The position numbers and the translations under genes were made by a program. A stretch of 64,000 nt of DNA from Mobula hypostoma. Its lineage: Eukaryota. The notes below the pieces were generated by a model, which ran no database searches, had not been told where the DNA came from, and saw only the letters and a list, made by a program, of their open reading frames with translations. Where the stretch lies: positions 22,942,001-23,006,000 of the forward strand of contig NC_086097.1 in assembly GCF_963921235.1 (NCBI RefSeq), given 5' to 3'. Positions 281 to 56,380 of this stretch are shown in pieces; position 1 is the first letter of the stretch; every line of letters starts with the position of its first letter.

Positions 281-312
281 AGTCCTGACGAAGGGTCTCG
301 GCCTGAAACGTC
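281..312 (+). ncRNA. Minimal hammerhead ribozyme, truncated at the GUC cleavage triplet
   Basis: AGTC-CTGACGA-AGGGTCTCGGCCT-GAAAC-GTC, then a jump to upstream PLE sequence. Confidence 0.75.
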
Positions 313-403
313 TCCATCCCTCCCCCTCCTGTCTTCTCCTATCATTTTGGATCTCCCCCTCCCCCTCCAACTTTCAAATCCCTTACTCACTCTTCCTTCA
401 GTT

Positions 404-439
404 AGTCCTGACAAAGGGTCTCGGCCTGAAACGTCGACT
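404..439 (+). ncRNA. Minimal hammerhead ribozyme with G8A core mutation
   Basis: AGTC-CTGACAA-AGGGTCTCGGCCT-GAAAC-GTC-GACT. Confidence 0.7.
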
Positions 440-1827
440 GCACCTCTTCCTAGAGATGCTGCCTGGCCTGCTGCGTTCACCAGCAACTTTTATGTGTGTT
501 GCTTGAATTTCCAGCATCTGCAGAATTCCTGTTGTTTGCTACCCTGAGATTCATTTTCTTGCAGGCATTCACAGTAGAACAAAGAAATACAATAGAATCA
601 ATGAAAAACTGCATACGTGCACATACTGACAAGCAACCGATGTCCAGAAAAGACGAACTGTGCAAATACAAAAATATAATAAAAAAAGAAAGAAAATAGA
701 TGTACAATTCAATAAATGCACAGTGCAGAGTACCCTGACTGGTAACAGCAATGCCTGGTATTGAAACACCAAAGCACAAGAATGGAAAAGCCTAAAAAAT
801 GTCGGGATACAGCTCAGTCCATCACAGAAAAAATCCTCCCCAGCATTGAACACATCTCCAGCGCCACTACGTTGAGGTATTGTTACAGACATCATCAGAG
901 CACTTTCCCTTAATCATTCATGCAATATACAGTTAGACATTTAAACTCTTGTGGTTTTGTTAGGTAAAGGTATTGAGGGTTGCAGAACCGAGGTGGGTAG
1001 ATGGGATGTTGCACAGATTAGTCCACCTTTGGAGTCTTCTAAATAAATATCCAGGAAGACACTCCAGTAATGTATTAAATGGATTTCCAGTTTAGTTAAA
1101 TATTAAAGTTCAATTCTGGGTTCCTGACAACATATCTCCCTCAGTCAGCAATTTCTGAAAAACAATATTTGAACATGTCTACTATAGTAATTGTGAGATC
1201 TTAAGAGCATAGAACATAGAACACTACAGCGCAATACGGGCCCGCAATGTCTTCTACTGTACCTTCTCCAAAGACTCTGCACCCTCTCCTGTAACGGGGT
1301 GGCCAGAATTGCACTCTGCTACTCCAAATGCAGCTGAAGTCAAGTTTTATGTAACTGCAGCCTGAGGTAACTGGAATTAAAATGTTGTTCAATTGTGGTC
1401 TTACTGCACGGTAGAAGAGGGGTAATGGGCTGAACAGTCTGCTCATGTTCACAGATCCAAAGTATTATTCATTCTGTGCTGGGAAGAGCTGGAGTGGTGA
1501 ACAGCAGATGCATAGGGGCAGGGTGCACTGGTGGGGAAGGGGAAGAAAAGCTATTTCTTTCTTTCCTGCAACCTGACAGCTTGCAACTGAAAATATAGGA
1601 GCCGAAATGGTGGGAAATGAGTATGTTATGCATTGAAGTCATTTTTATTCTTAAACCCATGAACATGTCAGTATAACGGTCTTTTGCAGTACCAGGCTGA
1701 GATCTGTTCAACCTATCTGAGCAATGAGGAAGGATTGAAAGAGCAAGGGCTTTTCTCTTTGGAGAGGAGGATGAGAGGTGACATGATAGAAGTGGATAAG
1801 GCGGGTCTGGGGAAGACGGAGTCTGCG

Positions 1828-2067
1828 TGTTCTGTTTTGTAACTTCAAAACTTTAAACTAATTCAAAGGAAGACACGGGAGTCTGGGGATGTAGGTCCAG
1901 CTTTGAGTTTACTTTAAGCAAGGCGCACATGTATCACGTGGTAGGGTGGTGACGTATGCAATTCACGTATTTATACATATAACCTGTGAAGAAATGAACA
2001 GGAATGCTTAGTCAACCAATATATGCACAAAATTACTCAACATTACATCAATATTAAATACGCAACA
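1828..2067. mobile_element. Possible short solo LTR
   Basis: TGTTCT...CAACA termini; right end closely similar to 5980-6020; no TSD seen. Confidence 0.4.
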
Positions 2068-2144
2068 GTAGTGTCTGATAATGCACGAGTCTGGTAGAGG
2101 CGAAGGAAGTGGCCTGTCTTCGGGTTAGAAGACAAGGTATGTAC

Positions 2145-2281
2145 TAGTCCTGACGAAGGGTCTCGGCCTGAAACGTCGACTGCGCCTCTTCCTATAGATG
2201 CTGCCTGGCCTGCTGCGTTCACCAGCAACTTTGATGTGTGTTGCTTGAATTTCCAGCATCTGCAGAATTCCTGTTGTTTGC
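2145..2281 (+). mobile_element. Short PLE 3'-end insertion starting at the hammerhead
   Basis: Near-identical to 403-539 and to the reverse complement of 31318-31452. Confidence 0.85.
2146..2181 (+). ncRNA. Intact minimal type I hammerhead ribozyme
   Basis: Stem I AGTC/GACT, core CTGACGA, stem II, GAAAC-GTC with ACGT palindrome. Confidence 0.8.
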
Positions 2282-2498
2282 GTTTAAATGTACAGGGGTA
2301 GCTGGGAGGGAGGACCAGGGCTATTGTCACTATTGCTGCTTTGTTTCTTGGTTTGTTCAGTTTTGTTTTGTTCTGTGTTGTTTTGCCAAGCATTGTGGTC
2401 ATGCTATCTTGGTTGCTGCAATGTGTGCTGACATTTGCGGGCTGCCCCCAGCACATGCTTAGGTCGTGTTGGTTGCTAAATAAAATGATGCATTTCAC

Positions 2499-2643
2499 AA
2501 CAACACACACAAAATGCTGGAGGAACTCAGCAGGTCAGGCAGCATGTATGGAAATGAATATTGACGTTTCGGGCCAAGACTCTTCATCAGGACTCTCCTG
2601 TGTGTTGCTTTGAATTTCCAGCATCTGCAGAATTTCTAGTGTT
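2499..2643. mobile_element. Inverted pair of PLE 3' ends with minus-strand hammerhead (2561-2594)
   Basis: Minus arm then plus arm; flanked by AATGA(TG/CA)CATTTCAC at 2484-2498 and 2644-2658. Confidence 0.7.
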
Positions 2644-2894
2644 AATGACACATTTCACTGTGTGTTTTGATGTACATGTGATAAATAAATCTAAATCAAC
2701 ATATCCAGACCTGCCTCTCGGTTTTTTTGCACTACCTTACTTTGCCTTTTCTATTTTCTATTTATGATTTATAATTTAAATTTTTAATATTTACTATTGA
2801 TTTGTACTCCAGGGAACGCGAAGCGCAGAATCAAATATCGTTGTGATGATTGTACGTTCTACTATCAATTGTTTGGCGGCAATAAAGTATAAAG

Positions 2895-4127: not shown

Positions 4128-5362
4128 CAGAATCAGAATCAGGTTTATTGTCATCAGCATGTGTCATGGAATTTGTTAACTTAGCAACAGCAGTACAATG
4201 CAATGTATAATATATAAGAAGAAGAGAAAAAACAATTACAGTATACGTATATTGAATAGATTAAAAATCATGCAGAAAAACAGAAATAATTGTATATTAA
4301 AAAAGTGAGGTTATGTTCATGGGTTCAAAGTCTATTTAGGAATCGGATGGCAGAGGGGAAGAATCTGTTCCTGAATGGCTGTGTGTGTGCCTTCAAGCTT
4401 CTGTACCTCCTATCTGATGGCAACAATGAGAAAAGGGCATGCCCTGGGTGCTAGAGGTCCTTAGTAATGGACGCTGCCTTTCTGAGACACCGCTCCCTAA
4501 AGATATCCTGGGTTCTTTGTAGGCTAGTGCCCAAGATGGAGCTGACTAGATTTACAACCTTCTGTAGCTTCTTTTAGTCCTGTGCAGTAACCCCTCCATA
4601 CCAGACAGTGATGCAGCCTGTCAGAATGCTGTCCACGGTACAAATATAGAAGTTTTTGAGTGTACTTGTTGACATGCCAAATCTCTTCAAACCCCTAATA
4701 AAGTATAGCTGCTGTCTTGCCTTCTTTATAACTACATCGATATGTTGGGACCAGGTTAGATCCTCAGAGATCTTGACACCCAGGAACTTGAAGCTGCTCA
4801 CTCTCTCCACTTCTGATCCCTCTATGAGGATTGGTATGTGTTCCTTCATCTTACCCTTCCTGAAGTCCACAATCAGTTCTTTTGTCTTACTGATGTTGAG
4901 TGCCAGGCTGTTGCTGCGACACCATTCCACTAGTTGGCATACCTTATCACCACCTGAGATTCTACCAACGATGGTTGTATCGTCAGCAAATTTATAGATG
5001 GTATTTGAGCTATGCCTAGCCACACAGTCATGGTTATGGAGAGAGTAGAGCAGTGGGCTGAGCACACACTCCTGAGATGCACCAGTGTTAATCATCAGTG
5101 AGGAGGAGATATTATCACCAATCCGCATAGATTGTGGTCTTCCAGTTAGGAAGTCGAGGATCCAATTACAGAGGGAAGTACAGAGGCCCAGGTCCTGTAA
5201 CTTCTCAATCAGGATTGTGGGAATGATAGTATTAAATGCTCAACTAAAGTTGATGAACAGCATCCTGACATAGGTGTTTGTGTTGTCCAGGTGGTCTAAT
5301 GCCATGTGAAGAGTCATTGAGATTGTATCTGCCATTGACCAATTGTGGCGATAGGCAAACTG
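4128..5362 (-). mobile_element. Rex1/Babar-type LINE, 5'-truncated (RT C-terminal half and 3' UTR)
   Basis: ORF 4574-5128 has [35 protein letters not shown] and FKFLGV motifs; (ATTCTG)n tail at ~4128-4141; inserted into a CR1 remnant (3915-4127). Confidence 0.9.
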
Positions 5363-6033: not shown

Positions 6034-6348
6034 CGTTGGGCACGTCCTGACGAAGGGTCTCAGCCTGAAACGTCGACTGTACCTCTTCCTATAGATGCTG
6101 CCTGGCCTGCTGCGTTCACCAGCAACTTTGATGTATGTTGGTTAAGGCGTTCGTCTAGTTATCTCAACGTCGCTAGTTCGAGCCTCAGCTGTGGCAGCGT
6201 GTTTGTGCCCTTGAGCAAGGCACTTAATCACACATTGCTCTAGTCTGTGCGAGGAGTGGCGCCTCACACAGACTTCCAATCTGCGCCTTGTAAGGCATGA
6301 AAATGCTCAACGCAGGCCTCTCATGGTCTGAGTTGACGTTCCTCTCCC
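6034..6348 (+). mobile_element. tRNA-derived CORE-like SINE with a PLE/hammerhead fragment (6044-6139) inserted in its A box
   Basis: GTTCGAGCC B box, GTGCCCTTGAGCAAGGCACTTAA CORE-like motif, TSD TCCCCTTAAAC (6023-6033, 6349-6359). Confidence 0.8.
6044..6077 (+). ncRNA. Minimal hammerhead ribozyme, core intact
   Basis: GTC-CTGACGA-AGGGTCTCAGCCT-GAAAC-GTC-GAC. Confidence 0.75.
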
Positions 6349-14199: not shown

Positions 14200-14320
14200 G
14201 TCCAGTCCTGACGAAGGGTCTTGGCCCAAAACGTCGGCTGTTTATTCATTTCTATGGATGCTGCTTCCTGACCTGCTGAGCTCCCCCAGCATTTTGTGTG
14301 TGTTGCTTTTAATCCTCCTG
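14200..14320 (+). mobile_element. PLE 3' end with hammerhead (G12A: AAAAC)
   Basis: CAGTC-CTGACGA-AGGGTCTTGGCCC-AAAAC-GTC-GGCTG plus PLE tail. Confidence 0.8.
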
Positions 14321-17303: not shown

Positions 17304-17898
17304 TATCTGATAATTTTGTTGGAAGAAGTGATGATGTTATCACTTGCAGAAATGGAGCTTTGAGTAGGTACAAAATTTAGATTTCTAACCTTGTTAATGG
17401 ATCAGGCTTGAATCAGGTGTGAAACAGATGCACACCAAACTCTGTATAAAGAAGAAGAATTAATACATCCTGTTCCAATAAAACAAAAAGCAGAAACTAG
17501 ATTTAATGATTCTATTATGTTCCTGGGCTCTGCAGTGTCTTGAGCTAAATTAACTCCTCCAAACTGAGGTGGTGCTTGTCACCAGCAGAGGCAAATTTGC
17601 ATTGCATTTAATAAATTTGAAATTGCCACTGGTGACACTCTCTTAGTTTATGTTACAGAGAAAATACAACTCATCGTGTTTGTTAAGTAGCTACTATGTT
17701 GATGACTAAACTTTTGGAAAATTAATTTATACTATGGAGAAATTACAAGTCATAAAATACAGAGAATTAGAAGCACTTCAGCAAAAAGTTCCAAAATTGT
17801 ATTTTATTTTCAGAAATGTGTCTCAGCCACTGGACTAGTTTTCAGTTTTAAATCTTCAAAGTTCAAAGTACGTTAATAATCAAAGTATGTAATACTTT

Positions 17899-18034
17899 GT
17901 CCTGATGAAGGGTCTAGGCCCAAAACGTCGACTGTTTACTCTTTTTCATAGATGCTGCCTGGCCTGCTGAGTTCCATCAGCATTTTGTGTGTGTTGCTTT
18001 GGATGTCCAGCATCTGCAGATTTTCTCATGTTTG
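17899..18034 (+). mobile_element. PLE 3' end starting at hammerhead (G12A)
   Basis: GTC-CTGATGA-AGGGTCTAGGCCC-AAAAC-GTC-GACTG plus tail. Confidence 0.8.
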
Positions 18035-18615: not shown

Positions 18616-19450
18616 CTATGGAAAAGAGTAAACAGTTGATGTTTTGGGCTGAGACCCTTCATCAGGACTGAAGACTTTTTTCCTCCAGTCCTGATGAAAG
18701 GTCTCTGCCCGAAATGACGACAGAGTCTTTTGCATAGATTTTAGTCATTGTCATAGTCATATTTTATTGATCCCAAGGGAAATTGGTTTTCATTACAGTT
18801 GCACCATAAATAATTAAATAGTAATTTAAAAAAACCATAGATAATTAAATAGTAATATGTAAATTATGCCAGTAAATTATGAAATAAGTCCAGGACCAGC
18901 CTATTGGCTCAGGGTATCTGACCCTCCAACGGAGGAGTTGTAAAGTTTGATGGCCACAGGCAGGAATGACTTCCTATGACGCTCTGTGTTGCATCTTGGT
19001 GGAATGAGTCTCTGGCTGAATGTACTCCTGTGCCCAACCAGTCCATTATGTAGTGGATGGGAGACATTGTCCAAGATGGCATGCAACTTGGACAGCATCC
19101 TCTTTTCAGACACCACCATCAGAGAGTCCAGTTCCATCCCCACAACATCACTGACCTTACGAATGAGTTTGTTAATTCTGTTGGTGTCTGCCACCCTCAG
19201 CCTGCTGCCCCAGCACACAACAACAAACATGATCACACTGGCCACCACAGACTCGTAGAACATCCTCAGTATTGTCCGGCAGATGTTAAAGGACCTCAGT
19301 CTCCTCAGGAAATAGAGACGGCTCTGACCCTTCTTGTAGACAGCCTCAGTGTTCTTTGACCAGTCCATTTTGATAGTTCTTCCAGAATTTTGTACGTGTT
19401 GCTTGGATTTGCAGCATCGACAGCTTTTCTCTTGTTTGTGATTGGAACAG
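18616..19450. mobile_element. Inverted PLE-end pair with two back-to-back hammerheads, interrupted by a LINE
   Basis: Minus HHR ~18633-18670 and plus HHR ~18686-18722; TSD TATTAGCCAT (18606-18615, 19451-19460). Confidence 0.7.
18742..19367 (-). mobile_element. Rex1/Babar-type LINE 3' fragment
   Basis: ORF 18901-19368: KKGQSRLYFLRRLRSF, FYESVVAS, SHPLH, RKSFLPVAIKLYN; (GACTAT)-like tail. Confidence 0.9.
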
Positions 19451-19842
19451 TATTAGCCATGCTGTCTTCCACGAAATGAAATGCAGAACTACTTTATGTG
19501 CTGTCATTCAAAGGAAATTCTGAAAAATGGCACTTCTGACAGAGTGGCAGTTCTTTGGTACTGCACTGGGGCATCCGCCTTGATTGTAAGAATGGAATAG
19601 AATTTGAAAGCACTGCTTAAAGAATGTTAGCCACTGAAATTTTAGTAAAATGAATGGTTCCCCCTCATATATTTGATCTTTCCCATTAATGTCAAGTTGA
19701 TAATTTTTAATATATTCAAAATTCTTTAAGGAATAAGATATGGATATAAGAATAGGCAATGTAACTTCCTGAAGTGTGCTGTGTTCAACAGTTCATAGTT
19801 GATTGGCTTCTGCAACTTCGTCCTTTATTCTCCAAAGCCTTG

Positions 19843-28590: not shown

Positions 28591-29177
28591 GCAAATGTGC
28601 TGCAGACGCTCTCTGCAAGGAGCTTGTACGTTCTCCCTGTGACCGCATGGTTTTCCTCCGGGTGTTTTGGTTTCCTTCCACGGTCCATAGACATACTGGT
28701 TGATCGGTTAATTAGTCATTGTACATTGTATTGTGATTAGGCCAGGGTTAAATTGGAAGATTGCTGGGCAGCGTGGCTCAAAGGGCCAATAGGGCTATTC
28801 CACATTGTATCTCAATCAATTGATAAATAAATAAATGGGGAGCTAGTTTGTTGCAAGGAAGTTGGGAACGTTTCTGCTGGAATGAAGATTGGAGTCCAAC
28901 AAGGACCTGTTCTGAGGAAACCTCAAGTAAAATTGAATTTCCCTGGAGCTGGAGGGGAAAATCACAGATCTGGGACAAACAAGTTTGTAAAAAGTTACTT
29001 ACACCCAGAAAAAAAAGCAATCAATAGAGACCCGCACAGGTCAAACCTTGGTGACCCTGTTTTTGGAAAGATGAGGTTAAACTCGAGAGAGTGCTGAAAA
29101 GATTTATGCAGATGATTCCAGGACTAGAGCGCCTGTGTTATAGGGAGAAATTAGACAGACTAGGTCATGCCATCAGG

Positions 29178-29857
29178 AAGGTGACACTTCACCTGTGAGT
29201 CTGTTGGGGTCATACTGCGTCCAGTGCTCTTGATATGGCCTCCTGTATATTGATGAGACCTGACGTAGATTGAGACACCATTTCGCCAAGCACCCTACAC
29301 TCCGTCCGTCAGAAGAAGTGGGGTCTCCCAGTGACCACCCATTTTAATTCAACTTCCCATTCCCATTCTGATTTGTCACTCCGTGGCCTCCTCTACTGTT
29401 GTGATGAGGCCACACTCAGGTTGGAGGAGAAACACCCTATATTCTGTCTCGGTAGCCTCCAACATCGATTTCTCAAACTTCCAGTAATGGCCCCCCCCCC
29501 GCCCACCATTCCCCATCCGCTTTTTCCTGTCTCACCTTATCTCCTTGCCTGCCCATCACCTCCCCCGGTGCTCCTCCCCCTTTTCTTTCTTCCATGGCCT
29601 TCTGTTCCCTTCTATCAGACTCCCCTTCTCCAGCCCTGTTTCTCTTTCACCAATCAACCTCCCAGCTCTTTACTTCATCCCTCCCCTCCCACCTATCACC
29701 TTGTGTTTCTCTCTCCCCTCCCTCACCTTTTAAATCTACTCCTCATCTTTTTTTCCTCCAGTCCTGCCGAAGGGTCTCGGCCCGAAACGTTGACTGTACT
29801 TTTTTTTCCATAGCTGCTGCCTGGCCTGCTGAGATCCTCCAGTATTTTGTGTGTGTT
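29178..29857 (+). mobile_element. PLE 3' fragment: GIY-YIG endonuclease remnant, 3' UTR and hammerhead (29759-29795)
   Basis: HFTCESVGVI..GLLYI.ET, HFNSTSHSHSD...RLEEKHPIF.LGSLQ; CAGTC-CTGCCGA...GAAAC-GTT-GACTG. Confidence 0.88.
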
Positions 29858-31048: not shown

Positions 31049-31317
31049 ATTTAGACTTCTCCATCTCGGGCCCCCTGAGGATTTTTGTGTTCGGGTTTAT
31101 GTCAGTACAGGCGGATGCATCATTGTGTAAACGTGCGACATGATTAGGTGGTGTCTGATGCCCGAAAAATTGAGGCGCATGAGAATGGATTGCAATGGAA
31201 AGAGCCTGGCTCAGTTTCATGAATACTGTGATTTTCCCTTCATGAGATCTATTCCCAGTAAAATTAATTTTGGTTATTTAGTTCCTTTTAAATAAAAAGC
31301 ATCAAACATTCCAATAT

Positions 31318-32734
31318 AAACAACAGGAATTCTGCAGATGCTGGAAATTCAAGCAACACACATCAAAGTTGCTGGTGAACGCAGCAGGCCAAGCAGCATC
31401 TATAGGAAGAGGCGCAGTCGACGTTTCAGGCCGAGACCCTTCGTCAGGACTAACTGAAGGAAGAGTGAGTAAGGGATTTGAAAGTTGGATGGGGAGGGGG
31501 AGATCCAAAATGATAGGAGAAGACAGGAGGGGGAGGGATAGAGCCAAGAGCTGGACAGGTGATAGGCAAAAGGGGATACGAGAGGATCATGGGACAGGAG
31601 GTCCGGGAAGAAAGACAAGGGGGGGGGGACCCAGAGGATGGGCAAGAGGTATATTCAGAGGGACAGAGGGAGAAAAAGGAGAGTGAGAGAAAGAATGTGT
31701 GCATAAAAATAAGTAACAGATGGGGTACGAGGGGGAGGTGGGGCCTAGTGGAAGTTAGAGAAGTCGATGTTCATGCCATCAGGTTGGAGGCTACCCAGAC
31801 GGAATATAAGGTGTTATTCCTCCAACCTGAGTGTGGCTTCATCTTTACAGTAGAGGAGGCCGTGGACAGACATGTCAGAATGGGAATGGGATGTGGAATC
31901 CCTGAGATCCTGCTTTCTCCGGCGGACAGGGCGTAGATGTTCAGCAAAGCGGTCTCCCAGTCTGCGTCGGGTCTCACCAATATATAAAAGGCCACATCGG
32001 GACGCAGTATATCACCCCAGTCGACTCACAGGTGAAGTGTTGCCTCACCTGGAAGGACTGTTTGGGGCCCTGAATGGTGGTAAGGGAGGAAGTGTAAGGG
32101 CATGTGTAGCACTTGTTCCGCTTACACGGATAAGTGCCAGGATGGAGATCAGTGGGGAGGGATGGGGGGGACGAATGGACAAGGGAGTTGTGTAGGGAGC
32201 GATCCCTGCGGAATGCAGGGGGGGGGAGGGTAAGATGTGCTTAGTGGTGGGATCCCGTTGGAGGTCGCGGAAGTTACGGAGAATAATATATTGGACCCGG
32301 AGGCTGTTGGGGTGGTAGGTGAGGACCAGGGGAACCCTATTCCTAGTGGGGAGGCGGGAGGATGGAGTGAGAGCAGATGTACGTGAAATGGGGGAGATGC
32401 ATTTAAGAGCAGAGTTGATAGTGGAGGAAGGGAAGCCCCTTTCTTTAAAAAAGGAAGACATCTCCCTCGTCCTAGAATGAAAAGCCTCATCCTGAGAGCA
32501 GATGCGGCGGAGACGGAGGAATTGCGAGAAGGGGATGGCATTTTTGCAAGAGACAGGGTGAGAAGAGGAATAGTCCAGATAGCTGTGAGAGTCAGTAGGC
32601 TTATAGTAGACATCAGTGGATAAGCTGTCTCCAGAGACAGAGACAGAAAGATCTAGAAAGGGGAGGGAGGTGTCGGAAATGGACCAGGTAAACTTGAGGG
32701 CAGGGTGAAAGTTGGAGGCAAAGTTAATAAAGTC
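31318..32734 (-). mobile_element. Penelope-like element (Neptune-type), 5'-truncated: RT C-terminus, GIY-YIG, 3' UTR, hammerhead
   Basis: DFINFASNFHPALKFT..LPFLDL..VYYKPTD..SSHP..CKNAIPFSQFLRLRRICS; GVIYC..GLLYIGETRRRLGDRFAEH; perfect 13-bp TSD AACATTCCAATAT (31305-31317, 32735-32747); frameshifted. Confidence 0.93.
31416..31451 (-). ncRNA. Intact minimal type I hammerhead ribozyme in the PLE 3' UTR
   Basis: Minus strand AGTC-CTGACGA-AGGGTCTCGGCCT-GAAAC-GTC-GACT. Confidence 0.8.
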
Positions 32735-33021
32735 AACATTCCAATATCTTCAATATTGTTGGTTATCAAGTCTAATTTTATAATTTGCAGATGACATTAA
32801 GTTGGGACAAGCTGGACAATGGGATGTTTGATACAAAGGGAACTACAACAGTTTTCAAGAAGATATTAATATAATTGATAATGCAGTGATACATTTGCAA
32901 AGTAAGAATCAGAATGGGGTAAGGGAATCAAGAGCTCTTGGAGAGTAAGTACACAGAGTCACTCAGTAATGGTGTAGAATGGTGTAGGGATGAATTTGAA
33001 AAGGAGGAAAGTTATGCTGAA

Positions 33022-33245
33022 GACAACATTTCTGTTGTTGCTGGAAATCCAGAGCAATACATTAAATGCTGGAGGAACTCAGCAGGTCTGGCAGCACCTA
33101 TAGAGGGGAATAAATAGTTGACATTTCGGGCTGAGACCTTTCATCAGGGCTGGTGAAAGGTCTTGGCCTGAAGCGTTAACAGTTTATTCCCCTCCATGGA
33201 TGCTCCCTGACCTGCTGAGTTCCTCCAGCATTTTTATGTGTTGTA
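33022..33245. mobile_element. Palindromic PLE-end pair joined at the hammerhead cores
   Basis: ...CTTTCATCAG GG CTGGTGAAAG... centre at ~33148, ~90-bp inverted arms; probable TSD AA(G/C)TT(A/G)TGCTGAA. Confidence 0.8.
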
Positions 33246-34049: not shown

Positions 34050-34390
34050 AACAAAAAATCTACTGGAGGAACTCAGCAGGTTGATCATCATCCGTAGGAG
34101 GAAAGGAATTGTCAATCCTGATGAAGGACCTTGGCCCGAAACATCGACTGTTCATTCCTCTCCATAGGTACTTCCTGACCAGCTGTGTTGCTCCAGCATC
34201 TTGTGTGTGTTGCTCTGGATTTCCAGCCACTGCAGAATCTGTTATGTTAAGGAACTGCCAATGTTTTGAATCGAAACCATGTATCAGGATCTGAAGTACT
34301 GACAATTTCTTCCCCAGCACAGATGCTGCTCGACTGCTGAATTCCTCCCGCAGATTATTTGCTGCTCTTGATTCCTGCTTCTCCTGTCTC
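34050..34390. mobile_element. Nested PLE 3' ends (younger copy 34116-34245 inside an older inverted pair)
   Basis: TCCTGATGAAGGACCTTGGCCCGAAACATCGACTG plus tails in both orientations. Confidence 0.7.
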
Positions 34391-34590: not shown

Positions 34591-36448
34591 AGCTCATTGT
34601 GACTTGTTTTTTTGAAAGTAAACATATGGGCCTGGATCTTGCCATTGGTTTCAAATTAAACTGATGGGAATTACCCATTTAAATGGAAGCTTTGAATAAG
34701 ACTTCATCGCAAGTGTGCAAAAGAAAATGTTGTTTTATCATTATTTACTTCAGTTTAAACTGTTTTAAAATTTTTTATTACTGTCAGAGACAGACAGTGA
34801 CTTTGAAGGTATGCGTAGCGTAGGTTTGACAGTTGGCAAAGCTGGGAGTTATATTTCCCTTTTTTATTGCTATTTTGTGCGATTTTGTTCGGGCCAGACT
34901 GGCACTGCAGTCAATGAGTGGCACAGCACCAAACTGAACTGAACTGAACTAAACTGAACATCCCTAGACTGTTTCAATGTCTCTGTGGCTTAATGTTTTA
35001 TATTCTGTTTTTCGCTCATTCTTTGCCCTTTGCGTGATTTTTTTCTTTTTTTTTTGCCCATTGGGTATTTGATGTTTTCTTGGAACGGGTTCCAAGGTGT
35101 TTCTTTGTTTCACGGCTGTCTGTGGGTGGACAAATCCCAGGGTTGTAGACTTTAATAATAAATGTACTTCGAATCTTTGAATCTATTGACAGGTGTTCAG
35201 TAGTGTAATAGAGGTGGCATTTTCTGATTGTGTTGTTGGTGACTCAGTCACTGCCCAGGCGACACCACCGGAAATTGGGATGCTCCAGATCTCTGACGTG
35301 AGTGCTTTGTATCCAGAATGGGTAGGTGTGAGAGTGGGACAACTGCAGGCATTGATAGGAGATAACAGACACAAAGTGCTGATGAAGAGTCTTGGCCCAT
35401 AACATTATCTGTTTATTACCCTCTATAGATTATGCCTGACCTTCTGAGTTTCTCCAGCACTTTGCATGTGTTTCTCTGGTTTCCAGCATCTGCAGAATCT
35501 CTTGTTGTTATTGACAGTTGACAGAAGCCTTGACCCATAATGTTCAGTCCATAGCTAGTTGATTAAACTCCCCATCTTTCATCATCATCAATATAAAGAC
35601 TTTTAGAGTCGTAGAGTATGAAGCACAGAATCAAATCATTTGGCCCATCTAGTCGATGTTGACTTGATCTTCTGCCTAGTCCCATCCATATGCACCCCGA
35701 CTATATCCCTCCAAACTCCTTTTATCCATCTACTGATCGAAGGTTCTCATAAAGCAGGGGTTCCCAACCTCCATGGCATAAGAAAAGTTGGGAACCCCTG
35801 ATTTAAATGCTATGTTTGATTCTGCATCCACCACGTCCGCTGACAGGTCATTCCACACTTACATCAACCAGCCTCTGAGTTGTAGTCTCACCCACCCTAA
35901 GCGGAACAAGCCTGTTTGCACTGCAGGTGTAAGTCAGTGGGACTTGGCAAAACATAAGTACGGCATGGACTAGATGGGCTGAAGGGCCTGTTTCCATGCT
36001 GTGGTGCTCTATGACTCTGACCTCTGAATCCCCTTGTGCGGGGCTTGCGTGCTGTCTGTGTGGTCCTGTAGATCTCTCCCCAAGTGTTCAGGCTTCCATC
36101 CACATCCCAAAGATCTACTGGTAGGTGAGAGGGCAGCTAAGGATTGCCCATGGTTTAAGTGAGTTGAAGAATCTATGGGAAATTCTTGGAAAGGATAAAA
36201 TGGTTTGAGTGTCAGCCCTGACTTATTGGGTCAAAGGACCATTTCTGTGTTGCACGACTTTAAGCCTACGCCAGTTTTTGAATTAAATTGGTAACTTTTG
36301 CTTCGTTTAACTGGGTAAATGAATTCCCAGAGTTTTCACATGTCAAGTGAAATGCCCATTACATATACGGTATAATTGATGTATTATTGGAGATATAAAT
36401 ACAAATTAGAAATTATTCAATACATGTGTAGGTGAAGAATAAAACGTA

Positions 36449-40036: not shown

Positions 40037-40132
40037 GAAACACACATAAAAGTTGCTGGTGAACGCAGCAAGCCAGGCAGCATCTCTAGGAAGAGGTACA
40101 GTCGACGTTTCAGGCCGAGACCCTTCGTCAGG
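40037..40132 (-). mobile_element. PLE 3' end with hammerhead core, inside a hAT MITE
   Basis: Minus strand CCTGACGAAGGGTCTCGGCCTGAAACGTCGACTG. Confidence 0.85.
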
Positions 40133-40616
40133 GTCCCTAGACCCCTTGGGCAATGATGGGGGTCCAAGGCAAAAAAAGGGTTGGGAACCCCTGGTTTTGA
40201 GTGACTGGATGGGGTATTCATGAACTAGGCTTTTTTTTCCTGACTTCCCTCATATTCCTGACTCAGGAGATGAATTTCCCACTGCAGGATACCCAGACCC
40301 TGACCTGTTGTACTCAAGGTAGTTACGTGGCTGATCTAGTTAAGTTTCTGGTCAGTAATGAACCACTGGATGTTGATGGTTGGAGACTCTGTGATGGTAA
40401 TGGTGTTAGAAATCTTGGATGAGTGGTCAGACTCTCTCCTGTTGAAGATAGTCAGTGCTGCCACAAGACAGAGGTGTTATTTGCCACTCATCACCCACAT
40501 TGGTATTGGTTAATTTTGCCACTTGTGAAAAGCTTGCCTTGCATACTGTTTATACAGATCAAATCATTACACAGCGCATGGAGCTAGACTAAGGCAAATA
40601 ATAACATTGCAGAATA

Positions 40617-42966: not shown

Positions 42967-43464
42967 ATCACAAACACAAGAAAGTCTGCAGATGCTGGAA
43001 GTCCAGAGCAACACACACAAAATACTGGAGGAACTCAGCAGGTCAGGCAGCATCTCTGGAAAACAGCAAACAGTCGGGGTGTGCCGACCCTCAAACCCTG
43101 CCTCCCATATAAGCCCCCACCTTAAATTCCTCCGTATACCTGTCCAGTAGCCTCTTAAACTTCACTAGTGTATCTGCCTCCGCCACTGACTCAGGCAGTG
43201 CATTCCACGCACCAACCACTCTCTGAGTAAAAAACCTTCCTCTAATATCCCCCTTGAACTTCCCACCCCCTACCTTAAAGCCATGTCCTCTTGTATTGAG
43301 CAGTGGTGCCCTGGGGAAGAGGCGCTGGCTATCCACTCAATCTATTCCTCATATTATCTTGTACAGCTCTATCAGGGTCTCGGCCCAAAATGTTGACTAT
43401 TTACTCCTTTCCATTGATGTTGCCTGGTCTGCTGGATTCCTCCATCATTTTATGCGTGTTGCTG
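42967..43464. mobile_element. Inverted PLE-end pair interrupted by a CR1 fragment (43081-43375)
   Basis: TSD TTAGTGAGTGA (42956-42966, 43465-43475); CR1 ORF DSQRLFPRA..FFTQRVVGAWNALP. Confidence 0.75.
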
Positions 43465-46260: not shown

Positions 46261-47569
46261 CCATTCCGCCACTTAGTACCATCTACCCATCATCTCTCCG
46301 TCCTCTGATTCCATTTATCACCTACCAGACTCTGCCCCTCCCCTCATTGATTTCCCTGAAATGTCTGCCATTCCTCTCCCTCCGCAGATGCTGCTTGACT
46401 CAGACTGTCTCCAGCAGTTTGTTTTTAATTTTGCTATGATAGATCATGCTTACTGCTATCAATAGGAGATAAATTTCTAGACAACAGAATATAGCACAAG
46501 TGCAGGCCATTCTAACCAACCAGTCCATACGAGTGTTTATATTCCGTGCAGGTCAGCCCTCATTCTTCTTCAACTAACTCTGTCTGCAGAGTCTTCTAAT
46601 CCTTTCCCTTCCCTCATGTGCCTATCTATCATCCCTGACTTCATACTGTCAGGCTTAGAAACCTTATCGAAGCAATACCATAAATACATTTATCAGTGCT
46701 CAATACATTAACAAAAGCATCTGCATTAATATTAAAAATCAACAAAATTAGAGACATCAAAAATAGTCGAGGCATCAAAAATCAATCAGAGTCCTTTTAA
46801 TTTTTTTTTGCATCTTAAAACAGATAAATAAAGTGAGATTATGATTGATGGGCGCACTAAAAGGTGTTTAAAAATGTTGGCATATAGCAAATGTTGGCTC
46901 TGCAGTGCAGAAAATGACCTGCATTCAGTCAGGAAGAAAACATCATTTTCGTGGTTCATCTGAACCTGAATTGAAATATTCTTTCAATTTTCCTCCTTTG
47001 GAAAGTAGAACAAAGGAGCAGTTGCTTGAAGAGAGGCTGTCCAGTGCTGATAAGGCACTTGGAGAGATTGGACTAGAATCATTAAGTACACCATCACTCA
47101 GGACTCAGGCGTCTGCAGGTCTGTTAGAACATATCACAGATGCTTTATTTATTTACTTATTGCTTGTTTGTTTTGAACATCACTCTGCTCATCACCAATG
47201 TGTCACTTGGTTCGGATGCCCTCGAGCAGTTCCCATTAAGGCTCTTGCTTTCATAATGTTTTCAAAATGAGAAAGGTAGAATCATTTTACCGCCATTACT
47301 TTCCTGACACTGCTGGTGGTTATATGATCCTTCTCTATATCTGTCTGCATTGTACTTGTCACCAGAAAAATTTCTGTTTAATGATTACCCCTAAGTGTCC
47401 TTGAGAGAGTGTTGGGGGGAATGGGGACACTGCAGAATTATTGGATCAAGAATTCCAGGGTTTTAATCCCTGTCAGTGAAGGATTGTAATCCCTGTGTGG
47501 TATCATTACTTGTTTGCCATACTTTGATGTATTTAGATTAGTTTACAATATTCTTTTAGGGTTATCCAA

Positions 47570-48282: not shown

Positions 48283-49558
48283 GACACAAAATGCTGGAAG
48301 AACTCAGCAGGTCAGGCGGCATCTATGGAGAGGGAAAAAACAGTCAACATTTCAAACTCAGATGCTTTATCAGGACTGAAAGGGAAAGGGGAAGATGCCA
48401 GAACAAGAAGGTGGAGGAGGGGAAGGAGTACATGCTAGAAGATGATAGGTGAAGCTAGGTGGGTGGGGAGGAGGAATGAAGGGAGAAGCTGGGATCTGAT
48501 AGGTGGAAAAGGCAAAGTGGTGGAGAACAGGGAGTTTGATAGGAGAGGAGAAAGGACGATGGGAGAAGGGGAAGGAGGAGGTCACCAAGGGAGGTGATAG
48601 GCAGGTAAGGTGAAGAGAAGAGGTAAAGGCCAGAGAAGGGAATGGAGTAAGAGAATTACTAGATGTTGGAAATTGATGTTCATGCCACCAGGTTGGTGTC
48701 TACCCAGACAGAATATGAGGTGTTGCTTCTCCAACCTGACAGTGGCCTCTTCATGGCCGTAGAGGAGGCCAAAGACCTACATGGTGGAATGGGAATGGGG
48801 ATTGGAATTAAAATGATTGGCCATTTAAAATCCTGTTTTGTGCAGATAGAGTGAAGGTGGTCTACATCAGGGCTCACCAATGCAAAGGAGGCCACATCGG
48901 GAGCACAGGATATCGTAGACAACCCCAACAGATTCGTGGGTGAAGTGATACGTCACCTGGAAGGAGTGATTGGTGCCCTGAATGGTGGTGACGAAGGAGA
49001 TTAATGGCAGGTGTAACATTTCTTCTGCTTGCAGGGATAAGTGCTGGGGAGAGATCAGTGGGGAGGGATGAATGGACAAGGGAATCAAGGAGAGGGAAAT
49101 TCCCGTGGAAAGTGGGGAATGGTGGGAGGTAAGCATGCATTTGGTGATAGGATCCCATCAAAGATGGTCAAGTTGCAGAGAATGATGTACTAGATATGGA
49201 AATTCATGGGGTGTTAGTTAAGGACAAGAGGGACTCTATCCCTGTGAAGGCAACAGGAAGATGGGGTGAGGGCAGATATCCAGGAAATGGAAAAGTTGCA
49301 GGTGAATATCATTTGTGGAGGAAAGGAAACCTCATTCTTTGAAGAAGGGGGCATTTCTGATGTTCTGGAAAGGAAAGCCTCATCCTGGAAACAGATGTGG
49401 CAGAGATGAAGGGGCTGAGAGAGAAGAATGGCAGTTTTACGGAATAGGTATAATTGAGATAGTTATAGGAGTCAGTAGATTTATCAAAGATATCACTGGA
49501 CAGTTTGTCCCCAGAGATGGAGACCGAGAGATTGTGAAAGGGGAGATAGCTGTCAGAA
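48283..49558 (-). mobile_element. Diverged PLE fragment (RT C-terminus, GIY-YIG, 3' end)
   Basis: Collinear with 31318-32734; HFTHESVGVVYDILCSRCGLLCIGE; decayed hammerhead at 48341-48378. Confidence 0.88.
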
Positions 49559-51180: not shown

Positions 51181-51855
51181 ATAAAATAAATGTGTAGGCC
51201 AGAGAGATCAGCATCATGTTCAGCATAGAAATTGGGGAACTAAGGGCCTGTCCCTGTGATGTGCTGTTCTATATTCTATATGGACCATATAACGGGGAGA
51301 TATCAAATAAAACTTAGAAAATAACTTCTCCCTCTTTTCATAAAGAGAATTCATGTTTGCTAAATGAATAGAATCATCAAAATAAAAGGCATTCTAGTTC
51401 TGAGCAATGAGATCGCATTACCTTCATTCGTCAATCTCAGAAGTAGACATGGCTTCCCTCTCCCCATCACCAACCACCTGAGACAAGTTGCAGACTTTTG
51501 TTTTCACAGTGCTATCATTGACAAGGTAGACTGCTGTGTTGGATGTTCATCCTGTGAAGACAACGTGAGTCAGAATAATGCATATTTGGAAGAGTGGCCA
51601 GGAGCTATAAAAGCCACCATCTAGATAAGTGCATGGTCAGGAGAAGCTTGTGGGGGGCTGGGTTATGGAACAAATGTGGGTTCGCTGGGCAACACACTTG
51701 GACCAAAGGGACAGTTTCCATGATGTATAACTCTGACGGCCAACTTTCACTGAGGATAAGCGGAATGTCAACTAATCTCATTTAGAAACACAGATTCTGA
51801 GTCCTGATGAAGAGTCTGAGGCCAAAGCGTTGATTCTTTAATCCTTTGCATAGAT

Positions 51856-52276: not shown

Positions 52277-54689
52277 AGCACTTGCAGAAGTATCTTGTGT
52301 TCTGAGAGGAAATAGCGGGGTAGATGCATTGCAGCTGTTTCCATACACCTGAGAGTCTATAACTGGGAGGCATAAACCCAGAATAATTGGACAGTATTTA
52401 AGGCTGAGCTGAGGAGAAATCTCTTTAAAAAGAGGTTTGCAAGTCTAGGCAGATTGATTGATATGAGTACTCAGAGAGTCAACTAACTTGGGCTTCTACC
52501 GGAAACTGAAACTGTGACACAAAATAAACCATGTTTTAACTGAATTGAGGAGTTAGTTTAAGCCGTTTGCCTGGAGAGGAGATAAATAACGTTTGATTTT
52601 AGTAATTAACATTTTTGTTAAATTGCCAGCAACTGCTTAGCTCGTGTTCTCTCCAAAAGTAGACGAACTCTCCACGGAAAGACAAACACATCTGCCTTTA
52701 TGAGCTCAAATCGTGTGTTCTACAGCCGCTGAAGTTCTTTTACAATCCAGCTATGTTTATAATAAATTTGGCAGCTAATCTGTGCACAAAACGTTCCCAC
52801 ACACAGTAATGTGATAAGGACAAGACCATTTGTCCTTTGTTGAATAATAGATGTTGAAATATTGAATAGGACATTGAGGATAAGCATTTAATGGAATACT
52901 TCCAATTTTTGTCAGAATGAAATGACTGGCTGAAGACTTGTTCTGAACTTCCACCAACAAAGGCAACTATTGGGCACATGGCCATCAGTGATCTCTAATA
53001 ATATCTTGTGCCTCGTAAGAAAGTCTATGTCTTTGTATTTTACTGTTTATGAATGCTTAGGGTAGGTTAACAACTGTGGACGTATGGACAGGTTAGCACC
53101 TACCAAACAAAAGGTAGAGGAGAAAAAAATTAATTAAAGTAAACAACAGTAACTAGGCAAGCTATCTGCAAGATTGTGAATCGTCTTGATTGGATAGATA
53201 TGTAGAGAATTCTGCCTCGTGGGAGAACATATAAAAAAGGCGTCACCCATTTTGGATGGGCATGAGGTGACTTATTTGCTGTGAGAGGGCCGTCAGATAT
53301 CAGGGCTTCTTTCCTCAGATGAGGATGAATCCTTGGAGATTTTTAGATTCTTCATCAAAAAAGAGTCAGGCAAAAGAAGAAATTAGAAGAAGGTGGTTTG
53401 CTTTATTTGTGACATGTATGTACATTGAAACAGCCAGTGAAATAAGATCAGCAAGTGTTGCAACTTTCCCCGACATCAACATCTCCATAACTCAATAACC
53501 CTAACCCTGTACGCCTTTGGAATATAGGAGGAAATCAGAGCTCCTGGAGGAAATCCACAAGGTCATAGGTTTAACATAGAAACTCCTTACAGACAGTGGC
53601 AGGAATTGAACCCCGATCAGTAAATGCTGGCTCTGTAAAACAATTGCAGTAGCCACTATGAGGTCACAACCAAATCAACTGTTATATAAATGCTGTCAAA
53701 CCAGAATCTGCAGAAGCGGTAATGCACCATTAAGCTGGGTGCCAACCACCGTAAAACAAGAAGAAGAAAAAGAAAAATCTGCAGATGCTGGAAATCCAAG
53801 CAACACACAAAAATTTGTTGGGCTGAATGGCTTTCCACCTGTGATAATTCATATCATCATATGCATTTTGTGTGTTACTCATGAAATGACTGATTGACAT
53901 TGGCTTTCAATCCAACGGTCCCTCAAATCTCAATGTTAAAACTGTCTCCTTCCTTTTGGGGAGCTACTTGCTTTGGAGCACCAGTCTCAAGTTCAAGTTC
54001 AAGTTTAATTGTCATTCAACCACACATGAATACCAATGAACACAGCCAAATGAAACAGTCTTACTCCAGGGCCAAAATGCAAACAAAGTACAGTACCAAC
54101 TGCCACAAAGAGTATTGCAGCAGTCTACAGTTGAACACAATACTTCTTGTTTTCTGCTGAGTGAACACTGGGGGCTGGGGGGGTGCAGCACCATCTCCAG
54201 CTCAGACACCATGCCACACTGCCTCCAGTGGAGTGCACTGTCTCTGATGCCTCTCACCTGGTCAGCCATAAACAGGCAACACCGTGGCTTAAGGGCTAAT
54301 CCATGCTTCGACTGAGGTCACGCAGATCCCCTGCTATCCGCCAGTAAGTCAGTGAACTGGACTTGCAGCATTTCACATTAACTATGTCCAACTGGGTCTT
54401 GCAATCGTAGGAAAAGTGACTAAGACAATGACTTGCTATTAGACTACACACCGCTTTCACGCACCCACTCCTCTGACGCAGGCAGTAGCATGATCTGTAC
54501 CAAGTCCAGCTCCTTCAGTTTCTCCACCAATGAGCAACTCACTGATGGAGTAAACCTGCAGTACTTTAAGTTCTCTGTGTACTTTCCAGATATCTGTGCA
54601 CATCCAATCATGAGCCCATTGGAGACACTCCGCCACAGGTAGACGGGGTCGTAAAGAGAGCTTCTGGCCATGTCCTTCTGACTTTCGTA

Positions 54690-55312
54690 AATCAAAGCAT
54701 TGAGTATAGCTGTTACAATGTTATGGTAAAGTTACCTAAGGTGTTGGTGAGGTCTAATTTGGAGTATTGTGTGCAGTTCTGGTCACTGACCTACAGGAAA
54801 GATATCAATAAGACTGAAATAGTACACAGAAAACTTATAAAGAATTTTGCCAGGACTCGAAGACATGAGTTATAGGGAAAGGTTGAATAGGTTACGACTT
54901 TATTTGCTGGAGTATAAGATAATGAAGGGATATTTGATAGAGATATATGAAGTTAGATATAGATGGGATAAATGCAAGCAGGCTTTTTCCACTGAGGTTG
55001 GGTAAGACTAGAACAAGAGGTTATAGGTTAAGGGTGAAAAGTGAAATATTTAAGGGAAGCCGGGGGGGGAGGGGATCTTCTTCACTAAGAGGGCGGAGAG
55101 AATGGAACAAGTTGCCAGTGTTGGATGTGGATTCAATTTCAACATTTAAGAGAAGTTTGGATAAGTCCCTGGATAGAGTGGGTATGGAGGGCTGTGGTGT
55201 GGGTGCAGTTTGATGGGACTAGGCAGAATAACAGTTTGGCACAAATTAGACGGGCCAAAGTGCCTCTTTCTGTGCTGTAGTGTTCTATGATTTTCTGGCT
55301 CAATGACTCTAT
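54690..55312 (+). mobile_element. CR1 LINE 3' fragment
   Basis: LEYCVQFWS, RLFPLRLGKTRTRG, WNKLP motifs. Confidence 0.85.
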
Positions 55313-55776
55313 GACCACTGATGGCCATACCTTCTACTGCCTTAGCCCTGAGAACTGAAGAGCTTCCTCTTAACAACTAGTATTTTGTCCTTTACATTTT
55401 TCCAGTTAAAATCCATCATTTTTCCTCATATCTACTCCTGCTGTAGCGCATCAGTCTTTGTTTCATAACGTTCACGTGAAGCCTCGTGAGATAGTTAACT
55501 CTGCAAAAGGTGCTCATTGTTGCTGGGATCATCAGAAATACAAGTGACAAAATTCCTGAAATAGGTTCTGGACAGTTTGCAAATAAAATTACGCCTGCAT
55601 TTTCGCATTTGGTTGTAGAAAATTGCAAGGAGTGGAAAGTGAGTTAAAAAGACTGAGAACAGGCTGAGTGTGCAGCTAACAGTGATTTTGGCATCAGGAA
55701 GAATGCCGTCAGTGGTCCCGGAGTCATAGAGTTACAGGGCATCACAACACAGAGAAAGGAAGGCCCTCATTCATTA

Positions 55777-56380
55777 CAAACACGAGAAAGTCTGTAAATG
55801 CTCGAAATCCAAACTAACACACACAAAATGCTGGAGGCACTCAGCAGGTCAGGAAAGGATGAAACCGTCGACGTTTCAGGCCAGGACCCTTCTTTAGGAC
55901 TGAAAAGGAGGGGGGAAGATGCCAGAAGGAAAAGGTGGAAAGAGACTAGCTCCTGTGCCAAGATGAGGCCACCCTCAGGGTGGAGGAGCCACGTCTTATA
56001 TTATGTCTGGGTACCCTCCAAGCTGATGACATGAATATTAATTTCTCCTTCCAGTGTACAGATTCCAACCCCTCCACACTTCCTCTATTCCCCACACTTT
56101 TATTTCCCCCGGGTCCCTTCCTCCTTCCTTTTTCCTACTGTCACTCTTCTCTCCTGTCATATTCCTTCTTCGACAACCTTGACCTTTCCCACCCACCTGA
56201 CTTCACCCATCACCTTCCAGCCAGCATCTTTCCCCTCCCACAATTTCTGTTCCTGGCATCTTCCCTCTTCCTTCTCAGTCCTGATGAAGAGTTTCAGCCT
56301 GAAACGTTGACTGTTTATTTATTTCCATAGATGCTGCCTGACCTGCTGAGTTCCCCCAGCATTTTGTGTGTGCTGCTTTC
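55777..56380. mobile_element. Inverted tail-outward PLE pair in one TSD, two hammerheads (55865-55902 minus, 56276-56313 plus)
   Basis: Perfect 13-bp TSD CCCTCATTCATTA (55764-55776, 56381-56393). Confidence 0.88.

Follow-up and report, generated by a model that had tools for sequence, protein, structure and literature searches.

The hammerhead-like motifs scattered through the 64-kb window (the whole stretch of ray DNA analysed here) are very probably minimal hammerheads carried in the terminal repeats (pLTRs) of a hugely amplified, likely Neptune-type Penelope-like retroelement (PLE). Most of them would be carried along, dead, in copies truncated at the 5' end, and any importance they have is likely confined to the PLE ribonucleoprotein.

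Hammerhead motifs of the window and their parent element

An ungapped scan using the 36-nt copy at 2146 as query identified 21 motif places in the window at a threshold of 12 mismatches or fewer. Shuffled windows (n = 20) gave none at this threshold and at most one at 13 mismatches, and a core-pattern search of the window returned 10 matches against 1.3 expected. The scan recovered 20 of the 21 positions listed in the preliminary description, mostly within a few bases (minus-strand positions in that list denote the low end of each copy). The remaining one, 44318(-), was rejected as a merely similar sequence that has diverged far and whose core is broken, and the 36-nt scan added a copy at 43363(+) that the list had missed. 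To speak of about 20 ribozymes was correct as to the motif and overstated as to intactness: all conserved core letters are retained in nine of the 21 copies, the core plus the palindrome in seven, and these together with the first three pairs of helices I and II in only three (2146+, 6043+ and 31451-). Since the members of the pairs 281/404, 18634/18687 and 33116/33146 belong in each case to a single insertion, as its two arms or as a tandem, the copies correspond to approximately 18 insertions. An Rfam search of the window gave no hammerhead match at E ≤ 1, as is to be expected, presumably because the motif lacks helix III. An Rfam match to mir-3747 was discarded; it is below the gathering score and sits on an inverted motif pair.

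The proposal of a PLE-borne minimal type I hammerhead with a loopless ACGU palindrome was supported by the core grammar and by the pLTR location. The majority letters of both subfamilies contain C3 U4 G5 A6 N7 G8 A9, G12 A13 A14 A15.1, U16.1 and H17; helix I is open (type I) and comprises 4 bp and one flanking pair, and helix II has 4 bp with a tetraloop. Among 99 copies from a 910-kb sample, 97 have an extra A after A9 and 91 have G10.1, while position 11.1 is C in 36 and U in 57, the young subfamily being G10.1-U11.1. The core, the extra A, G10.1 and the palindrome are also kept in four runs of other organisms, in three of which 11.1 is C in most of the contig depth. The base-pair changes seen were one-sided (G-C/G-U) or at N7, with no two-sided compensatory change among the sampled families, which are very close. 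Between subfamilies, the motif majority letters are equal at 34 of 36 positions and identity is 0.79 in the motif versus 0.53 and 0.47 in the flanks, a conservation that is inflated because the copies were chosen by their likeness to the motif.

The host of the motif is a PLE, and the motif sits in its terminal repeat. Full units of about 3.5 kb were found outside the window in tandem (periods 3515 and 3513, three motifs), in which the next ATG lies 139 nt downstream of the motif cut site. EN+ PLEs are characterised by one ORF that combines RT with a C-terminal GIY-YIG domain bearing CCHH; the units found encode a single ORF with the following features: (i) a reverse transcriptase (RT) with YIDD and DKG motifs (Pfam RVT_1, E 2.7e-5, 24.4 bits, below the curated cut-off of 29.6), (ii) a C-terminal GIY-YIG domain (E 6.1e-8, above the cut-off) with two Cys inside it, and (iii) between RT and EN, a CX4CX2C linker, CKRNKCYTC, at residue 877 of the full-unit frame. 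A CX2-5CxxC linker in this location is described as a trait of the Neptune clade, common to Nematis (PMC8557442), and the vertebrate PLE clades are given as Neptune and Poseidon in a preprint (Li et al. bioRxiv 10.64898/2026.07.22.740005). Judged by the linker motif and host group rather than by a tree, the element likely belongs to Neptune. The traits of EN+ PLE insertions are all present, namely tandem pLTRs, an inverted 5' copy, a one-sided tail of 30–40 bp and a target-site duplication. A literature search returned nothing in print specific to this ray family, which Repbase or Dfam may hold.

Table 1. Motif copies and element fragments located in the window
Feature	Position	Strand	Remarks
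5'-truncated young PLE	31318..32734	-	Carries the RT thumb and Cys linker, a frameshifted GIY-YIG remnant with a stop at 31745-31747, a 3' UTR/pLTR rich in pyrimidines, the hammerhead and the long 3' end; same region found in full units
13-bp target-site duplication, both copies	31305..31317 + 32735..32747	.	Flank element 31318..32734
Intact minimal hammerhead	31416..31451	-	Predicted cut between 31420 and 31419
Intact minimal hammerhead	2146..2181	+	Front of 135-nt stump 2145-2279, which is 99% identical to the 31451 copy
Intact core, 3-bp helix I	6043..6078	+	Stump 6044-6143, short 3' end
123-nt tandem	228..537	+	Motif 281-312 ends at C17, without the 3' strand of helix I; motif 404-439 (second piece) has G8 to A
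Two-armed insertion	2501..2646	.	Minus arm, damaged motif 2559-2594; plus arm, 3' tail only (2599-2646)
Head-to-head decayed motif pair	18634..18722	.	18634-18669 minus, 18687-18722 plus; origin of sub-threshold Rfam hairpin matches
Head-to-head decayed motif pair	33030..33241	.	33116-33151 minus, 33146-33181 plus
Older-subfamily fragment	29184..29857	+	GIY-YIG remnant, UTR, motif 29760-29795 (A6 to C)
Decayed motif	14204..14239	+	G12 to A
Decayed motif	17898..17933	+	G12 to A
Motif with broken palindrome	34114..34149	+	Core intact
Decayed motif	35375..35410	+	
Young copy	40100..40135	-	Core and palindrome retained; helix I 5' strand cut off
Decayed motif	43363..43398	+	Absent from the preliminary list
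Decayed motif	48342..48377	-	
Decayed motif	51800..51835	+	
Decayed motif	55866..55901	-	G5 to A
Near-intact older-subfamily motif	56277..56312	+	Core and palindrome retained; one mismatch in helix II

Abundance, decay and predicted folding

The genome contains 46,990 exact copies of the 33-nt motif, which bears out the very large genome-wide reservoir postulated earlier. Recognisable copies number approximately 380,000, or 1 per 9.2 kb, so that the density of 1 per 3 kb holds for the window, which is threefold denser, and not for the genome. About one copy in six is intact by grammar, amounting to roughly 65,000 genome-wide (extrapolated from 17 of 99 in 910 kb sampled). The RT fragment of the element at 31318..32734 gave 135,794 first-look candidate matches in the genome. 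Within old copies, non-CpG changes affected 70 of 567 core and 17 of 126 loop positions, and CpG changes 89 of 189 and 50 of 126, respectively. The catalytic positions of dispersed copies decay as fast as the loop positions, and there is no purifying selection on the core.

Nearest-neighbour energies, which ignore the tertiary core, favoured an inactive hairpin for the monomer (-11.7 kcal/mol versus -7.7 for the hammerhead fold), in which G5-G8 would pair with C15.2-C17; for the dimer, the minimum free energy (MFE) was -31.7 versus -12.9 kcal/mol for the hammerhead fold. A half-active cis dimer at 281/404 was considered and rejected, being at -15.2 kcal/mol 11.5 above the MFE of -26.7. The intact same-strand copies 2146+ and 6043+ lie 3.9 kb apart, about the spacing of the PLE's own tandem. 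The copies at 2146-2181 and 31416-31451 are on opposite strands, and one transcript spanning them is predicted to form a long duplex and not a dimer.

Insertion junctions and alternative readings

The 3' ends of copies cluster at about +67 and +102 nt past the predicted cut site. Every inverted two-armed insertion combined one short and one long 3' end (49 of 49, and 8 of 8 in random stretches). The arms of a pair matched at diagnostic letters in 43/45, 42/45, 36/38 and 32/34 cases, where about 25, 29, 23 and 23 were expected, and agreement at a CpG site showed no excess (30/43, expected 32). We infer that the two arms come from the same template. Self-priming has been favoured for head-to-head junctions (PMC3846280); the ray junctions would be better explained by two primings on a single template. 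At the other end, 5' junctions per 1000 copies amounted to 6.1 at -35, 5.2 at G5 and 3.1 at the cut site, with the -46 and G12 controls filtered more strictly. The 5' ends crowd the front edge of the ribozyme, in an excess that is broad and partly driven by microhomology. Among old copies, 14 of 50 begin sharply at the first base of helix I; this pile-up was set aside as at least partly an alignment artefact, because the upstream sequence of the old subfamilies differs from that of the young reference.

That copy 281 stops exactly at C17 prompted a search for a cleavage footprint, as would be left if RT ran off or started from a ribozyme-cut end in a circular or unit-length intermediate. Raw 5' junctions do peak at G1.1 (364 versus 65, 152 and 94 at neighbours), and a hand count of the first 100 out of 1361 junctions assigned 25 to this position. 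A hand count of the 96 genome-wide 3' breaks in the 9 nt after GAAA placed 30 after C17, 18 after the first C and 4–9 elsewhere, with 8 small indels. However, the G5 control, which has the same first three letters, collected 355 junctions on fewer copies, so that the G1.1 peak falls below it per copy, and inspection by hand attributed about 39 of the first 100 junctions at G1.1 to microhomology joins with helix I. At the 3' side, approximately 20 of the 30 breaks after C17 proved by hand to be microhomology deletions, and all breaks of the 9-nt zone number about 300 after filter correction, less than 1% of intact copies. Both footprints were rejected; the cut-template reading is largely refuted by the G5 control, and it is extremely improbable that cleavage shapes the copied RNA. 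Scarcely more credible is that the short copies form an independent non-autonomous family (a SINE or non-LTR retrozyme) with its own RNA. In a random sample, the 5' end falls between -45 and +36 relative to the cut site in 23 of 45 young copies, so that many are only 70–150 nt long, and the window holds one 123-nt tandem; but the 5' ends of copies form a continuum up to full length, the short copies are 97–99% identical to the ends of long ones and share their two 3' ends, and the window has neither long tandem arrays nor a canonical helix III.

The preliminary description also held that host transcripts crossing the region could pair copies in cis or trans and be cut, a claim that fared badly. 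The exact and grammar-intact copy numbers given above, the 2146+/6043+ pair and the weak in vitro cutting by S. mansoni min-HHR dimers (reported in PMC4209133) are in its favour. Against it, core letters are lost as fast as loop letters, the inactive hairpin is the predicted favoured fold, many copies lie in inverted pairs whose motif would be buried in duplex, the two copies suggested for assay are on opposite strands, and cut-site junctions show no excess. In addition, the Anolis motif is reported to be cut only with its protein, leaving no RNA-seq ends (PMC11167929), and 8 of 9 Xenopus dimers stayed uncut according to a preprint (bioRxiv 10.64898/2026.07.22.740005). A weak further point is that no Pfam family, and hence no Pfam-detectable host exon, turned up in the 150 frames searched out of 210 unmasked window frames of at least 45 aa, though the region may still belong to a long intron; the frame at 46875-47267 had no homologue among longer proteins. 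The copies are unlikely to cut host RNA, and that they do so at a meaningful level is very improbable. A better though still doubtful case can be made for a role of the 36 nt as a promoter or as a hairpin bound by protein, for which active lineages would retain them, with the hammerhead a non-cutting relic. A stable hairpin is predicted, an initiator-like TCAGT, which we take to resemble the Inr consensus, immediately precedes the motif, at the place of highest 5'-end density, and a common variant breaks the fourth helix I pair in contigs of related organisms. Internal promoters have been described within pLTRs (PMC2377424, PMC3846280). Nevertheless, a plain hairpin needs none of the invariant core, extra A after A9, G10.1 or palindrome that both subfamilies and the four other-organism runs keep, and in the Anolis element HHR mutants act like ribozyme mutants (PMC11167929).

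Under the favoured reading, of PLE hammerheads carried mostly as dead cargo, the PLE protein would nick both target strands, the same uncut pLTR RNA would be copied twice, once per start site, and the two cDNAs would be joined by microhomology. Many cDNAs appear to end close to where the motif begins, which may reflect an RNA start at that place. Since the lone motif is predicted to fold inactive, cutting would need two same-sense copies held by the PLE protein, as reported for the Anolis element. Such cutting would follow reverse transcription or be separate from it, for instance by trimming read-through transcripts to unit length. An improbable extension, which we put forward as speculation, is that the junctions record the complete copying cycle: uncut RNA starting from the initiator before the hammerhead would be copied from two fixed sites by a two-subunit complex priming both strands, the hairpin-locked hammerhead would be freed when this complex pairs terminal repeats, and the roughly 47,000 exact copies would be latent ribozymes, also in host pre-mRNAs. 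If the PLE protein does activate dispersed copies, a retroelement would control latent RNA cut sites genome-wide.

Comparison with known systems

The ray motif extends the known PLE minimal hammerheads to cartilaginous fish; the ray copies do not demonstrate a new function. As described in PMC4209133, the min-HHR of metazoan PLEs are likewise of type I, lack a helix III loop, are palindromic at 15.2-16.2, have an extra base between 9 and 10.1, G10.1 and a 4-5-bp helix I, and occur in PLE terminal repeats mostly as dispersed singles with some opposite-strand pairs. They differ in helix II, which is 4 bp in the ray motif versus 7–8 bp in the S. mansoni families, and in having G10.1-C11.1 where the young ray subfamily has G10.1-U11.1. 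Descriptor matches there number about 4,000 in coelacanth and 9,000 in Xenopus, so that the ray, with its exact copies alone, has at least five times the vertebrate counts reported; no shark or ray was found named in the available part of its text and supplement.

Non-LTR retrozymes (PMC7229834) also carry type I hammerheads related to pLTRs, the vertebrate ones acting as dimers, and 126,247 canonical hammerhead motifs are reported in the 28-Gb axolotl genome (Li et al. bioRxiv 10.64898/2026.07.22.740005). In contrast to their tandem arrays, canonical helix III and circular RNAs, the ray copies are dispersed truncated PLE ends without helix III. Arrays of 170-400-nt units with a complete hammerhead each were not found among the ray copies; these are dispersed, and in the sole 123-nt tandem one motif is truncated and the other carries a mutated G8.

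The insertion architecture does not differ in kind from that of EN+ PLEs in the accounts available (PMC8557442, PMC3846280), which describe partial tandems, an adjacent inverted 5'-truncated copy, a 30-40-bp tail at one end, a target-site duplication and 5' joins by microhomology. The tens of thousands of young ray insertions constitute a dataset from which PLE mechanism can be read at the junctions. A close counterpart is PAc, the Poseidon element of Anolis carolinensis (PMC11167929), in which the hammerhead also lies just upstream of two RT start sites 30–40 nt apart and the template is uncut RNA, with no in vivo cleavage ends reported. The ray element differs in its Neptune-type Cys linker and in the position of the ATG, which in PAc is inside helix II and not past the cut site. 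Both strands used both sites in the PAc in vitro reactions, unlike the strict genomic pairing of short and long ends in the ray. Together with the missing cleavage footprint, this pairing lends support from in vivo insertions to the model of two starts on an uncut template, which had until now been demonstrated in vitro for that one lizard element.

Motif copies in the window and in the genome

The motif is a known kind of PLE minimal hammerhead, with copies that are real, abundant and mostly dead; cleavage itself is a prediction from sequence. An ungapped scan of the window, with the copy at 2146 as the query, matched 21 sites when up to 12 of the 36 nt were allowed to differ, compared with none in 20 shuffles at the same threshold. 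The scan recovered 20 of the 21 positions listed in a preliminary description of this DNA; the remaining one, 44318(-), is a far-diverged look-alike, and a copy at 43363(+) was missing from that list. As had been proposed, the motif reads as a minimal type I hammerhead with a loopless ACGU palindrome: helix I pairs AGUC with GACU; the CUGAnGA core is followed by a single additional A and then by helix II (4 bp, capped by a tetraloop), after which come GAA, the palindrome and C17. An Rfam search of the window returned no model matching the motif. By hammerhead grammar, the core is kept in 9 of the 21 copies, the core and palindrome in seven, and these together with pairs one to three of helices I and II in three (2146+, 6043+ and 31451-). 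The roughly 20 ribozymes claimed are hence present as motif copies, but only these three are intact.

The exact 33-nt pattern had 46,990 matches in 3.48 Gb and its reversed control had none. Sampling the genome at regular intervals (91 stretches of 10 kb, 910 kb in total) gave 99 copies at up to 11 mismatches, one per 9.2 kb, which extrapolates to ~380,000 genome-wide; 17 of the 99 were intact by grammar (~65,000 genome-wide). The sample was considered representative because it contained the exact pattern 12 times, against 12.3 expected. The large genomic reservoir that had been supposed is thus real, although the window from which it was deduced is about three times as dense as the genome average. 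The element makes up 4.8% of the 910-kb sample. Published counts, in the sections consulted, are ~4,000 minimal motifs in coelacanth and ~9,000 in Xenopus (PMC4209133), and 126,247 canonical motifs in axolotl (PMC7229834).

The carrier element and other features of the window

The PLE origin of the motif, also put forward earlier, is borne out by the RT and GIY-YIG remnants around 31416-31451 and by full tandem units elsewhere.

Repeat-derived features of the window
Feature	Position	Strand	Evidence
1.4-kb element holding motif 31416-31451 in its 3' non-coding part	31318-32734	-	RT-thumb and GIY-YIG remnant; 13-bp target duplication
Non-LTR retrotransposon RT / C-terminal fragments	4574-5239, 18901-19452, 57750-58223	-	First two: Pfam RVT_1 and ALKBH8_N; third: no Pfam match

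A first look for the RT fragment of this element gave 135,794 candidates genome-wide, and full tandem units were among 20 loci chosen for long frames. One of them, L089, carries three motifs spaced 3515 and 3513 nt apart; from the predicted cut site it is 139 nt to the ATG of the following unit. The Cys linker of the protein is one assigned to Neptune and Nematis in the consulted part of PMC8557442, which suggests placement there by linker motif. The closest named proteins were from Mobula hypostoma (88–91% over about half of the query), Hypanus (78%) and sharks (67–71%). At L090:780-3809, a GIY-YIG piece and the N-terminal portion of the following unit are fused into one chimeric frame of 1010 codons. 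More than 400 residues of this PLE protein also occur inside database isoforms named as host genes, P0023 (divergent protein kinase domain 1C, Hypanus) and P0040 (chitinase domain-containing protein 1, Mobula), representing either exonisation or annotation error.

Window 228-537 holds a 123-nt terminal-repeat tandem. Its first unit breaks off at the predicted cut site, and an enzyme half that is intact adjoins a putative cleavable substrate half, so arranged that the tandem resembles the seed of a non-LTR retrozyme. The non-LTR fragments are unrelated to the hammerheads. A 132-codon open frame at 46872-47270 (+) lies in sequence without a repeat match in the fetched loci and had neither a Pfam family nor a longer homologue in the Pfam and protein searches; it is possibly a host exon or chance. 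The minus-strand reading of ~28620-28760 may resemble the V-domain found in V-SINEs of sharks and rays.

Decay, folding and junctions at the predicted cut site

Within the motif, the core of inserted copies decays as fast as the loop. Non-CpG changes in 63 old copies affected 70/567 cells of the core, 119/819 of the stems and 17/126 of the loop, and CpG changes 89/189 of the core and 50/126 of the loop; G12 was changed in 20 of the 63. The corresponding values in 36 young copies were 7/324, 23/468 and 1/72 for non-CpG, and 14/108 (core) and 7/72 (loop) for CpG. Since core changes are on par with loop changes, dispersed copies decay without regard to catalytic role. Between subfamilies, the majority letters of the motif differ only at N7 and the CpG-eroded H17, with flanks far more divergent; in contigs of four runs from other organisms, majority changes fell at 11.1 (three runs), N7 (one) and 1.4 (one). 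This pattern is consistent with selection acting in active lineages, but resemblance to the motif was the criterion for picking both sets, and neither the subfamilies nor these contigs showed a compensatory change on both sides of a pair. A subfamily common among related organisms (L089:5323; runs X13, X14 and X17) has A for U at helix I position 1.4, leaving three clear pairs unless the partner changed too.

In predictions that omit the tertiary core, the monomer favoured an extended hairpin pairing G5–G8 with C15.2–C17 (-11.7 kcal/mol) over the hammerhead fold (-7.7), and the inactive duplex of two copies was favoured at -31.7 against -12.9 kcal/mol. Of a pair of sampled copies carrying U at N7, one gave the same hairpin and the other a different fold, both lower in energy than the hammerhead fold. 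The two copies suggested earlier for in vitro testing, 2146-2181 and 31416-31451, lie on opposite strands, so that within one transcript they are predicted to anneal to each other (about -281 kcal/mol) as a duplex rather than a dimer; dimerisation is possible only for same-sense copies, here 2146 and 6043.

Because copy 281 ends at C17, junctions were counted genome-wide, with three upstream mismatches required at the 5' side. Raw 5' junctions peaked apparently at G1.1 (C17 65, G1.1 364, +2 152, +3 94), and the controls gave 355 at G5, which has the same first three letters, 420 at -35 and, with stricter filters, 98 at G12 and 155 at -46. Per 1000 copies of each 23-mer, with copy numbers estimated from 18–32 sample matches, the rates were 0.6, 3.1, 1.2 and 0.8 around the cut and 5.2 (G5), 6.1 (-35), 1.2 (G12) and 2.3 (-46) at the controls. 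A 5' footprint at G1.1 is rejected, its rate being below that of G5. On the 3' side, the 9 nt that follow GAAA contained 96 breaks (~300 after filter correction, <1% of intact copies); hand sorting placed 30 of them after C17, and a footprint there is likewise rejected, as ~20 of the 30 were microhomology deletions. The predicted cut site is not special among junction positions. The cutting of host transcripts once envisaged is unsupported.

Insertion junctions and comparison with known systems

The 3' ends concentrate around +67 and +102, matching the known 30–40-bp tail. Inverted two-armed insertions (including L002, L079, L112 and L200-L227) combined a short arm (about +67, no further than +80) with a long one (about +102, beyond +80) in 49 of 49 pairs from fetched loci, the 20 long-frame loci excluded; most of the 49 came from loci selected because a junction lay in the motif, and an arm can be shortened by erosion. 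The same pairing was found in 8 of 8 pairs from random stretches. The two arms of a pair agree in their subfamily letters much more often than chance predicts, but do not agree at a CpG change, indicating one template and no later homogenisation. We infer that the pairing is a clear in vivo mark of one template primed twice: both target strands would be primed on the same uncut RNA, with one start site each. Flank duplications of ~10–14 bp were seen in many of the 40 pairs listed. A 2-nt micro-inversion (AG to CT), flanked by a 3-bp inverted repeat, recurs at the apex of the fold-back where the two arms meet, in L205, L223 and ~8 more of the first 100 G1.1 junctions listed.

Young 5' ends fell within -45 to -20 (26 nt) in 12 of 45 cases, against five in the next 255 nt. 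TCAGT, presumably initiator-like, lies within this cluster, the place where many cDNAs stop and where the RNA may have its start. Promoters in pLTRs are described in the consulted parts of PMC2377424 and PMC3846280.

Nothing specific on this motif family was found in the literature searched, Repbase and Dfam lying outside that search; a 2026 preprint, as far as consulted, sampled one cartilaginous fish. For the Anolis element, the consulted part of PMC11167929 reports that uncut RNA served as the template, that the ribozyme needed the element's protein to cut, and that no ends were found by RNA-seq; the lack of a cut-site footprint here agrees with that uncut template. Retrozymes differ in being defined by tandem arrays. 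Judged from sequence, every feature at that level of the minimal hammerheads in the consulted part of PMC4209133, and of the EN+ PLE architecture, appears to be present.
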